Source: a virus. Taken from it: a stretch of 64,000 nt of DNA. The DNA is taken from positions 1-64,000 of IMG/VR virus record IMGVR_UViG_3300009506_000009; one strand, given 5' to 3'. Under the pieces are notes generated by a model. That model saw only the letters and a list, made by a program, of their open reading frames with translations, searched no databases and was not told where the DNA came from. Of this stretch, positions 34,843-51,575 are shown in pieces (positions within the stretch are counted from its first letter, which is position 1; every line of letters begins with the position of its first letter). Position numbers and translations under genes: made by a program.

Positions 34843-34944
34843 CTAAGTCCACTGCATCGAGGGCATAGTAGGATGACGTTGCGAGGACGCACCCTAGACC
34901 CCTTCCGAATTGAGTGACCTGGACAGTGGACCTACTTTTGATTG

Positions 34945-35139
34945 ATGAAGGAGATTACAATGTACTTTATCTTTAATCTAAAAGCAACTAGTGGTACTGC
35001 ACACTATATTAAATGTGAAACCAGACAGGACCTTGAAGATCAGGTTGAATGGGCAATGAATCGAGAAGTTGCCTTCTTTGTTTCCCCTGATCTTGAAACC
35101 GTTCGCAGGGTTGCGGGTGTTGAATTAGAAGAGTTTTAG
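34945..35139 (+). CDS. Small hypothetical protein
   Basis: ORF ending at the RNase P 5' end; true start may be the GGAG-preceded ATG at 34960. Confidence 0.55.
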   Translation: MKEITMYFIFNLKATSGTAHYIKCETRQDLEDQVEWAMNREVAFFVSPDLETVRRVAGVELEEF

Positions 35140-35344
35140 ATTGACCAGAGAACTCGTCGCTGTACGGCAGTGCCGTATAGAGGAACTTCAGGACTCCACT
35201 GCTAGAGGAAGGAGGCTAACGCCGATTGCACTTCCGAGGGAGCAAGCCAAACAGACCTAGCTGGAAAGCAGGGCAATGATGGTCGGGTTGGTGCATAGGT
35301 AGATGACGAGATAGAACAGAATCCTGGGTAAGCTCAGTCAATCT
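35138..35344 (+). ncRNA. rnpB: Minimal RNase P RNA (catalytic domain, about 207 nt)
   Basis: P1-P8 and P15 pair; GAGGAA-CTTCAGGA / ACAGAA-TCCTGGGT P4; GGAGCAAG; AGATGAC. Confidence 0.88.
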
Positions 35345-35349
35345 TTCAC

Positions 35350-35421
35350 TGACATGTGGTATAATGGTATTATGTCCGGCTGTTAACCGGAACGATGTAG
35401 GTTCGAATCCTACCGTGTCAG
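35350..35421 (+). tRNA. tRNA-Asn(GTT)
   Basis: Cloverleaf. Confidence 0.88.
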
Positions 35422-35436
35422 CCTTTAGGAGGAACC

Positions 35437-49516: not shown

Positions 49517-50707
49517 ATGGCAGACCTTTATATCCCAGGCAACCCATCAATAGATGAGGCAATAGAATACTTCGGCGCAGAAGCAATGAAGCAGGTCCAG
49601 ACCCTGGTCTCTCGACCAGAGTTTACTCATGTGCGCCTAATGCGGGATGGTCACCTTGGCTATCAGTCTATGCCAATCGGTGGGGTAACTGTATCACATC
49701 GATATATTGCTCCTGGTGGGGCAGGGTTTGATATTGGGTGTGGTAATTGGGCTGGTAAAACAGAAGTTCATATGTCTTACTTAACCAGAGGTGACCTGTA
49801 TGAATTGGGGATCGAAATCTCTAAGAAGATTGCTATTGGTCTTGGTCAGGCTTATGGTACGTTCGCTGACCACCCACTGCTTCCAGACATCATCCATGCA
49901 GTTAAGGATGCTCATATCAATATCACACCTGAAGTTATCATTAACCAGTTTGGTTCCGTTGGTGCAGGCAACCACTATATTGACCTGATGACAGACTCCG
50001 AAGGATATATCTGGATCGCTCTTCACTATGGCTCCCGTAAGCTTGGGCATACCATTGCTGATCACTACCTTAAGATGCTTGGAGCTAATGACGGTATGTT
50101 CTCGATGCCTGTATTCCTGGATACATGGTCGATGGTTGGTCAAGAGTACCTACGCCTTATGGAGCTTGCAGGTGAGTATGCTAGAGTATCACGCCGCTTG
50201 GTAGGTACAAAGATTGCTACGCAAATCCTTCAAGACACTGTGGTTGATGTAGTAGAGAACCACCACAACTACATCTGGCAGGAAGTACATCATGGTGAAG
50301 CTGTCTATGTTACCCGCAAGGGTGCAACTCCCGTTCACCCAGGTGTACGTGCTTTCATCGGTGGCTCCATGGGTACGGACTCAATTATTGTGGAAGCAAT
50401 TGACTGTGACGAAAACAACAAGACATTCCGCTCGGCTATGCATGGTGCTGGACGTACTATCAGCCGTGGTATGGCAAAGGGTAAGTTTACACGCAGTGGA
50501 GAAATGAAGCGTGCTCCACTAGTAACAAAGGAAATGATGAACGGCTGGATGAATACGGAAGGGATCATTCGGATTGGTGGTGGGGTTGACGAGTCACCAC
50601 ACTGCTACCGTAACTTGATCGAAGATGTGCTTCCTTATTACCCGCACCTTAAGGTTAAGGAAATCCTATCTCCAGTCGTAGTTATCATGAACCCTGATGA
50701 GCATTAA
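49517..50707 (+). CDS. rtcB: RtcB RNA ligase
   Basis: D.H.G, G.DIGCG, GNHY, HHNY, RKGAT, HGAGR, DESP..Y. Confidence 0.95.
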   Translation: MADLYIPGNPSIDEAIEYFGAEAMKQVQTLVSRPEFTHVRLMRDGHLGYQSMPIGGVTVSHRYIAPGGAGFDIGCGNWAGKTEVHMSYLTRGDLYELGIEISKKIAIGLGQAYGTFADHPLLPDIIHAVKDAHINITPEVIINQFGSVGAGNHYIDLMTDSEGYIWIALHYGSRKLGHTIADHYLKMLGANDGMFSMPVFLDTWSMVGQEYLRLMELAGEYARVSRRLVGTKIATQILQDTVVDVVENHHNYIWQEVHHGEAVYVTRKGATPVHPGVRAFIGGSMGTDSIIVEAIDCDENNKTFRSAMHGAGRTISRGMAKGKFTRSGEMKRAPLVTKEMMNGWMNTEGIIRIGGGVDESPHCYRNLIEDVLPYYPHLKVKEILSPVVVIMNPDEH

Positions 50708-50774
50708 TGAGTGGCCCACTTCGGTGGGCCTTTTTCTTGACTTTTACTAGGGAGTATGGTACAATACCTGCACT

Positions 50775-51575
50775 ATGAAAAACGAACTCAGCCTACTAGA
50801 ATATATGTACAACCTGGACCTGCTAGGGTTCAGGGGTTCCCTGCCACCTGTGGAAAATAAAATCTTCGAAGTGTATGCCGGGTCCTATGGTCGTAAGATC
50901 GCTGGTCTTATGTCAGATGTAGATATCGTGGCTGTGTATGTACCAGACTATGATGACCTTTACGGGCACCTTGTACCTGGGTTTGGTACAAAGACAGAAC
51001 GCTTCAAAGCCTTTCACACACCAGACTATATGGTGAAGCTCAATGCTGGTATGAAGAAAGTAGATGTAACAGCGTTTGATGTGGTACACTTCTTCAACTT
51101 ACTACTCAAAGGTAGCCCAAATCATGTGGAATACCTATTCCTTGAGCCAGGACGTAAGCTCACAGAAGCTGGAAGTATCCTGCTGGCTAATCGTGATCTG
51201 TTTGTTACGCAAACACTGGTTACCAAGCTGATCGCCGCAGGCAAACACATCATGCTTAGAGAAAGCCCACACTCCATCAAAGACTACATGCTGGCTACCC
51301 GCTTCTTTATCTATGCGGTACACGCCTACAGCCATGGAACACTGATGCCTGAACTTACGGTTAAGCTAATGCGAGAGATTAGGGATACAAATGATTGGGA
51401 TTACGCTCAGATGTGGGCAAAATCTTTCTATGAGCATGTCACTCAACTAGTAGAGACAAAAGATACTTTTATCCCGAAAGAAACCAGTGAAGAGCTTGCT
51501 AATGAAGTCCTGCTACAGGTCCTACACGCTCATTGGAACTCACGAGCAAAGGAGAACTATGACTGCTACTCTTGA
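50775..51575 (+). CDS. DNA pol-beta superfamily nucleotidyltransferase (RlaP-like)
   Basis: GS...G..SDVD..VYV; 'FFNLLLKGSPNHVEYLF'. Confidence 0.75.
   Translation: MKNELSLLEYMYNLDLLGFRGSLPPVENKIFEVYAGSYGRKIAGLMSDVDIVAVYVPDYDDLYGHLVPGFGTKTERFKAFHTPDYMVKLNAGMKKVDVTAFDVVHFFNLLLKGSPNHVEYLFLEPGRKLTEAGSILLANRDLFVTQTLVTKLIAAGKHIMLRESPHSIKDYMLATRFFIYAVHAYSHGTLMPELTVKLMREIRDTNDWDYAQMWAKSFYEHVTQLVETKDTFIPKETSEELANEVLLQVLHAHWNSRAKENYDCYS

Follow-up and report, generated by a model that had tools for sequence, protein, structure and literature searches.

The stretch of DNA analysed here (64,000 nt, hereafter the window) comprises positions 1 to 64,000 of the IMG/VR record IMGVR_UViG_3300009506_000009, a linear sequence of 98.9 kb that is 68% complete according to CheckV. 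It encodes a major head protein, a head protease, a portal and a large terminase, and the carrier is a tailed phage. Genes for ribonucleotide reductase and an RtcB ligase are also present in the window. Between 22.5 and 42.8 kb (22550-42820), an island on the + strand comprises 36 tRNA genes and a tmRNA gene. Within this island, and on the same strand as the tRNAs, lies a 207-nt segment (35138-35344, +; counted from the 5′ strand of helix P1 to its 3′ strand) that matches the Rfam model of bacterial class A RNase P RNA (RF00010). A tRNA-Asn(GUU) gene (35350-35423, +) begins 5 nt past its end. At its other end, a 65-aa open frame (34942-35139) without a Pfam match overlaps the P1 strand by 2 nt. 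A promoter and terminator scan around the segment found nothing above background.

The tRNA genes of the island (window 22550-42820) have a U at leader position -1 in 28 of 36 cases, and AU at positions -2/-1 in 24. U(-1) is the leader base favoured by bacterial RNase P RNA. By inspection, CCA is not encoded in any of the 36 tRNA genes. Just beyond the window end, at 64244-64618 of the window's own record, a 465-aa open frame (L183) for a nucleotidyltransferase of the CCA-adding family carries a CCA-adding/poly(A) polymerase head domain (PF01743, 75.7 bits). After the RtcB RNA ligase (179.8 bits) comes an RlaP-like nucleotidyltransferase, which belongs to the RNA-repair pathway (window 49517-51575). 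The phage thus seems to have a tRNA repair kit besides its tRNA supply.

Identification and secondary structure of the RNA

RF00010 aligns end to end (model positions 1-367) to 35140-35346 of the window, with 42.9 bits and an E-value of 4.9e-12 (1.9e-13 over the whole 98.9-kb record). It is the best member of the RNase P clan for this RNA in the Rfam scan. The comparison with Rfam RNase P models had been proposed in a first-pass annotation of this DNA, and it supports the assignment, yet at a score under the curated gathering cut-off of 100 bits. For that reason a default Rfam scan of the window reports no RNase P, and the match becomes visible only in E-value mode. The minimum-free-energy fold of the single sequence is not distinctive (z = -0.94), as expected for an RNA that is pseudoknotted and stabilised by tertiary contacts. 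Judged from sequence and alignment, we regard the segment at 35138-35344 (+) as truly homologous to type A RNase P RNA of bacteria.

The helices of type A RNA (E. coli M1 RNA, rnpB; RF00010) are matched one for one in P1-P5, P15-P17 and the P6 pseudoknot. All of the features given below are on the + strand. P1 is formed by 35138-35145 (AGAUUGAC) and 35337-35344, and P2 is read from the sequence as CUCGUC (35153-35158) pairing with GACGAG (35305-35310). P3 is a hairpin of 9 bp with the loop AGU (35160-35180). It is followed by J3/4 GAGGAA (35180-35185), as located in the RF00010 alignment. The 5′ strand of P4, ACU-U-CAGGA (35185-35193), has its bulged U at 35188 and pairs with UCCUG-GGU (35322-35329; from the sequence and homologue alignments), all 8 of 8 pairs being formed. 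P5 is evident in the sequence as CUCC (35194-35197) and GGAG (35239-35242), which together with the P1-P2-P3 stack frames the core as in type A RNAs.

Covariation places the P6 pseudoknot between CUGCU (35199-35203) and AGCAG (35267-35271) in the loop of P17. J5/15 is CAA (35243-35245), where we place the counterpart of the adenosine (E. coli A248) through which bacterial RNase P contacts leader nucleotide -1. P15 consists of CCAA/TTGG (35246-49/35289-92), and homologue alignments define P16 (35254-57/35281-84) and P17 (35258-62/35272-76). The L15 loop is GGGU (35285-88); in type A RNAs, the GGU of L15 pairs with the 3′-CCA of the tRNA. The stretch 35293-35321 consists, in the RF00010 alignment, of J15/2 with no P18, the 3′ strand of P2 and an A-rich J2/4. 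In this stretch, the J2/4 of which reads AUAGAACAGAA (35311-21), AG..AUG and ACAGAA are conserved.

The strings that the first-pass annotation had quoted for P1, P2, P3, P4 with its bulged U, P5, P7, the P8-like hairpin and P15 all occur where it had placed them. Its reading of the RNA as an RNase P RNA encoded by a phage, with P18 and almost all of the specificity domain lost, is likewise supported. Its version of P6 is not: the strings GCTAG/CTAGC occur, but this pairing forms solely in the window sequence, and only 47% of cells are paired across 20 homologues.

The characteristic type A elements are divided between those kept and those lost. The phage RNA has P4 with its bulged U, J3/4 GAGGAA, ACAGAA of J2/4, the J5/15 adenosines, the P15-L15(GGU)-P16-P17 arrangement and the P6 pseudoknot. 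Conserved regions II and III of the specificity domain (P7-P14) are absent, as is the P18 hairpin that docks on P8. P9-P14 are missing altogether, and none of the 24 RF00010 positions of P18 has a base aligned to it. The strands of P5 lie just 41 nt apart, compared with about 150 nt in a normal type A RNA. A typical type A RNA measures about 330-400 nt; the phage RNA, at 207 nt and without P9-P14 and P18, scores 43 bits against a cut-off of 100. It also departs from rnpB in being encoded by a virus, within a tRNA operon.

A 29-nt stub (35207-35235), consisting of P7 and P8, remains of the specificity domain. P7 (GGAAG/CUUCC, 35207-11/35231-35) leads into an asymmetric internal loop, GA (35212-13) opposite GAUUGCA (35224-30), which is closed by a P8/P9-like hairpin, GGC-UAAC-GCC (35214-23). 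The same layout (G-GA, a hairpin closed by G-C, then G-W-U-N-N-N-A) is common to at least 20 relatives, and both P7 and the hairpin covary across the family. The 3′ side of the internal loop reads, for example, GUUCGAA, GUUAGACA or GAUUGCA, and some of these versions look T-loop-like. This loop, with GA across from G-W-U-N-N-N-A, might serve as a novel minimal module for docking of the substrate or of a protein. Hairpins at the P18 position are apparently kept, by eye, in the relatives DLP6, L003, L102, L133 and LR756501. In full-size RNase P RNAs, the specificity domain reads the tRNA elbow, and P9-P14 hold the elbow-binding modules. From the missing P9-P14 we infer that the miniature RNA would act independently of the elbow.

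A family of miniature RNase P RNAs in phage tRNA arrays

This ribozyme is not a singular object; it is one member of a widespread phage family. Relatives were sought by scanning for patterns built around the P4 and P5 strings, and then with our own covariance model (R1). About 25 distinct relatives of 190-276 nt were found, so that the window RNA, at 207 nt, is small for the family and not its smallest member. Nearly all of them lie in phage tRNA arrays on the tRNA strand, often no more than 10 nt from the neighbouring tRNA gene, and each of six records searched whole holds a single copy. Members come from viral contigs of IMG/VR (L002, L003, L018, L058, L097, L144-L148), from metagenome contigs (L101, L102, L110, L115, L120, L122, L133, L134, L143 and others) and from MAG bins (L164 and L175, two short tRNA-array contigs).

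Blastn from the window RNA added three GenBank phages, namely vB_SmaS-DLP_6 (DLP6), LR756501.1 and LR745206.1. DLP6 is a cultured T4-like Stenotrophomonas phage, and its RNA (KU682439.2, 105774-106022; L149:1390-1638) matches RF00010 with 54.7 bits and an E-value of 7.7e-15. This RNA, of ~245-249 nt, is located a few nucleotides before tRNA-Arg(CCG), and no annotated feature underlies the blastn match. Its P5 is CUGG/CCAG and its P6 pairing has 8 bp. The other two carriers are huge phages of 735 kb (LR756501.1) and 635 kb (LR745206.1). An Rfam scan reported neither of their copies at E below 0.01, and R1 detects both. Further blastn searches with L146, L003, L002 and the DLP6 RNA gave no additional isolates.

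As modelled in R1, the family is defined by a type A catalytic domain combined with the stub (P7, GA loop, G-C-closed hairpin and G-W-U-N-N-N-A) and by its location in a phage tRNA array, all of which are found in the window RNA. R1 scores the window RNA at 146.9 bits on the core 35180-35331, this RNA being one of its training sequences. Members outside the training set score 110-128 bits, and full-size bacterial RNase P RNAs 21-55 bits.

A scan of one genome per species (185,579 species) for one exact pattern found the phage type only on the two MAG tRNA-array contigs. Scoring of 20 candidates per genome in 151 Pseudomonadota genomes, a weak negative, gave no model match. The tRNA-rich phages S-CRM01, KVP40, Bxz1, CcrColossus and XacN1 gave no match either. 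The miniature RNA is hence dispensable for a large tRNA array, since these five well-known phages have none.

Several sets of candidates were rejected. The pattern GGAGCAAG...TCGGGTTGG matched 95 stretches in viral contigs, nearly all by chance; two of them, L018 and L058, are real members that the regular-expression filter had missed. Among the pattern matches in metagenomes and genomes, many proved to be N-masked assemblies, or bacterial RNase P RNAs of full size in which the inner motif occurred by chance. The blastn match in Agrobacterium phage Atu_ph04 is due to chance, having no model match and no tRNAs.

Covariation and conserved sites

MAFFT alignments that included P1-P3 were misaligned, so core-only alignments were used and P1 and P2 were tabulated by script instead. 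In the alignment of seven cores (P4, P5, P6, P15, P16 and P17), 96.2% of cells are paired and 15 of 30 pairs are changed on both sides. None of 500 shuffles was as good, and controls with slid partners had 30-44% of cells paired. Realignment of 30 distinct sequences with R1, which leans towards structure because the model is fitted to it, gave 90% of cells paired and 27 of 32 pairs changed on both sides, compared with 34-47% paired in slid controls.

Pairing of P4 in homologues, the lack of which would have refuted the first-pass annotation, is complete in 19 of 20 sequences, with one mismatch in L148. Variants in this 20-sequence alignment include ACU-U-CAGGA, AGU-U-CGCGA and ACU-U-CGACA, and six of the eight P4 pairs are changed on both sides among the 30 sequences. 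P5 is invariant in most of the 20 and doubly compensated in three phages (CUGG/CCAG, CAAC/GUUG and CUAC/GUAG). P6 (CUGCU/AGCAG in the window) has four of its five pairs changed on both sides among seven sequences, and the homologous place is paired in all homologues (CUGCG/CGCAG, UUACG/CGUAA, GAACC/GGUUC, GUGAGAAU/GUUCUCAC). P1 and P2 are present with differing sequences in all 20 tabulated relatives, P2 covarying for example as CCUAUC/GAUAGG and GCACAC/GUGUGC. P3 is variable, and in L143, L115, L097 and L146 it is just 9 nt long (CACUACGGU or CUCUACGGA), which by eye resembles a stem of 3 bp capped by a UACG tetraloop. The architecture is kept across phages of 37-63% G+C.

Across the 20 sequences, the unpaired sites are also strongly conserved. 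Five bases of J3/4 GAGGAA are invariant and its G4 is nearly so; the bulged U of P4 is invariant, and the C after it invariant or nearly so. The two adenosines of J5/15 and the GGU of L15 are invariant. In the ACAGAA of J2/4, the C and one A are invariant and three more bases nearly so. Selection for activity would be expected to preserve precisely such positions, which serve in catalysis and substrate binding. The homology, the fold with its covariation, the conservation of catalytic and substrate-contact sites and the genomic context of this RNA are thereby demonstrated.

Comparison with other reduced RNase P RNAs

The nearest analogue of the phage RNA is the archaeal type T RNA, which is likewise natural, similar in size and left with the catalytic domain after the loss of most of the specificity domain. 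Type T RNA derives from archaeal type A RNA and has Pop5, Rpp30 and Rpp29 as its protein partners (PMC3579882). Its catalytic domain, of the archaeal type, has a P2 of 3 bp, a shortened P15 and 2 nt linking P5 to P15, and its specificity remnant amounts to P7 plus one or two short capped stems (PMC3579882). The characteristic type T features are not found in the window RNA. Unlike type T, the phage RNA has a P2 of 6-7 bp, a J5/15 linker of CAA and the type A arrangement of P6, L15, P16 and P17. The losses of the specificity domain in the phage RNA and in type T are independent and convergent.

The engineered E. coli ‘CP RPR’, from which the specificity domain has been removed, is active with and without protein, depends on a P6-like pairing and can dispense with P18 (PMC5839562). 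The phage RNA agrees with these requirements in keeping P6 and in having lost P18. It differs from the laboratory deletion in being natural and selected, with a conserved 29-nt stub. In vitro, isolated catalytic domains are far less efficient than full enzymes (PMC5839562).

In location, the ribozyme resembles the tRNAs and the tmRNA of phages, being part of the same island, on the same strand, and of the same translation and RNA-repair kit. Phage tRNAs and tmRNAs are well documented, whereas no report was found of a phage ribozyme that matures them. A survey of huge phages describes their tRNAs and tmRNAs with no mention of RNase P (PMC7162821). Full-text searches of the literature found no description of a phage-encoded RNase P RNA, and none appears in a 2024 review of RNase P or in the DLP6 genome paper.

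Protein partner

The absence of a visible rnpA in the window, reported in the first-pass annotation, extends to the whole 98.9-kb record, itself 68% complete, in which none was found. Nor was rnpA found in the complete genome of DLP6, in a 100%-complete relative of 184 kb, in an 82%-complete relative of 186 kb or in LR756501.1. With no phage rnpA found in most carriers, the partner must be that of the host, or there is none. The 635-kb phage LR745206.1 (L152) has an RnpA homologue (76444-76752, +; 115 aa; PF00825, 49 bits, E 2.9e-13) as well as a miniature RNase P RNA at about 502058-502280. This pair could amount to a complete RNase P holoenzyme of viral origin. The protein of full-size bacterial RNase P binds to the catalytic domain.

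Proposed function

We propose, with a probability of roughly 0.7, that the segment is a miniature RNase P RNA gene transcribed with the tRNA operon, whose product matures tRNA 5′ ends without reading the elbow, most probably together with host RnpA. The RNA would be co-transcribed with the phage tRNA operon. Its ends would probably arise from tRNA processing at the flanking genes, which would release it from the operon transcript; a cut at the 5′ end of tRNA-Asn would define the 3′ end of the ribozyme. It folds into a full type A catalytic domain, with the P1-P2-P3 stack, P4, P5, P15-P16-P17, the GGU loop and P6; the P7/P8 stub takes the place of a specificity domain of roughly 150 nt, and P18 has been lost. 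A pre-tRNA would be bound through its acceptor stem, its 3′-CCA (at the GGU of L15) and leader nucleotide -1 (at the A of J5/15), with no reading of the D/T elbow. The 5′ leader would then be hydrolysed, most probably by a holoenzyme with host RnpA, and the phage would be able to mature its 36 tRNAs with a ribozyme of its own. That the RNA is catalytic, which protein it works with and what the phage gains from it are what we infer from these features.

Self-cleavage in cis of the tRNA located 5 nt downstream was also considered and judged unlikely on geometry, as the tether leaves from the P1 end; in RNase P RNA, this end presumably lies far from the active site.

The loss of the elbow-reading domain, in a phage that also encodes a tmRNA, could instead point to a specialised ribozyme with widened or shifted specificity, whose main substrates would be odd tRNA-like RNAs (armless tRNAs and mimics), the tmRNA precursor or phage mRNAs. 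We consider this unlikely, as the same stub is found in many phages with ordinary tRNA arrays (as predicted by ARAGORN), the invariant GGU of L15 and adenosines of J5/15 are contacts for a standard acceptor end, and nothing ties the presence of the RNA to abnormal tRNAs. Since so many phages with ordinary-tRNA arrays share the design, abnormal tRNAs are not needed as an explanation, and the suggestion of the first-pass annotation that the ribozyme is suited to the abnormal tRNAs and mimics of this island is not supported.

Somewhat more doubtful still is a role as a weak or inactive decoy that would titrate host RnpA or compete with the host RNase P RNA, thereby redirecting or shutting down tRNA maturation in the host. 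The retained protein-binding catalytic domain and the many carriers without a phage rnpA, in which the RNA would have to compete for the host protein, fit such a role. A protein-binding surface alone would suffice for a decoy, however, and conservation or compensation extends to the bulged U, GAGGAA, most of ACAGAA, P4, P6 and the GGU that binds CCA. With 36 tRNAs to mature, the phage has a need of its own for RNase P activity, and one carrier, LR745206.1, brings its own RnpA.

A functionless, decaying fragment of host rnpB or an attachment-site remnant is very improbable, even for an RNA that is strongly shortened, scores below the Rfam cut-off and has apparent truncated 5′ counterparts in L099, L100 and L107: both halves are present and pair (P1, P2 and P4), which rejects an attachment-site fragment, the deletions are clean and compensated, the architecture persists over a wide range of G+C through many double substitutions, and the one-pattern scan of a single genome per species found the type only on two short MAG contigs with tRNA arrays.

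The preferred reading, a tRNA 5′-maturase of the phage, has consequences beyond this locus. RNase P RNA is one of two universal ribozymes, and as far as our literature searches show, none from a virus has been reported before. The odds seem about even that these RNAs constitute a virus-specific RNase P class of tRNA-rich tailed phages, elbow-free and the smallest natural bacterial type (190-250 nt), with a holoenzyme that includes phage RnpA in some huge phages. If so, then together with the phage tRNAs, the CCA-adding enzyme and RtcB, it would free the tRNA supply from dependence on the host, and might also protect it from host shut-off or from tRNA-targeting defences. A natural bacterial-type enzyme without a specificity domain would be an evolutionary experiment on the minimal catalytic core, bearing on substrate recognition without the elbow and on the extent to which phages rebuild the translation apparatus. 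Function of the family is directly testable in its cultured member DLP6, the host of which is tractable. Standard annotation misses the family because its scores fall below the Rfam cut-off; with a covariance model made for it, many phage genomes would have the RNA annotated.

Partial copies and other reduced RNAs

In addition to the intact members, we observed several partial or divergent RNAs. A second, degenerate copy (L097:3381-3523, -; 51.8 bits) is found directly upstream of the intact RNA of L097, and similar cases occur in L106, L117 and L123. The degenerate L097 copy retains the 5′ strand of P4, the stub and P15-P17, while its 3′ part is replaced by P1-P3 of the next copy, so that it looks like a tandem partial duplication. 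In the metagenome contigs L099, L100, L107 and identical loci, the RNase P RNA is limited to its 5′ portion, with P1-P5, a short S region and the beginning of P15; past this point the contigs differ from one another in sequence. An integration boundary or a truncation of the gene may account for this.

RNase P RNAs of 232-258 nt are found on two metagenome contigs that have no tRNAs nearby (L140:2332-2563, -; L126:13026-13283, +). These have a canonical P4, an apparent P18 (by eye) and a differently reduced specificity domain that keeps GGUAAAC, and they score 50-63 bits with R1. They are not of the phage type and may be cellular reduced forms.
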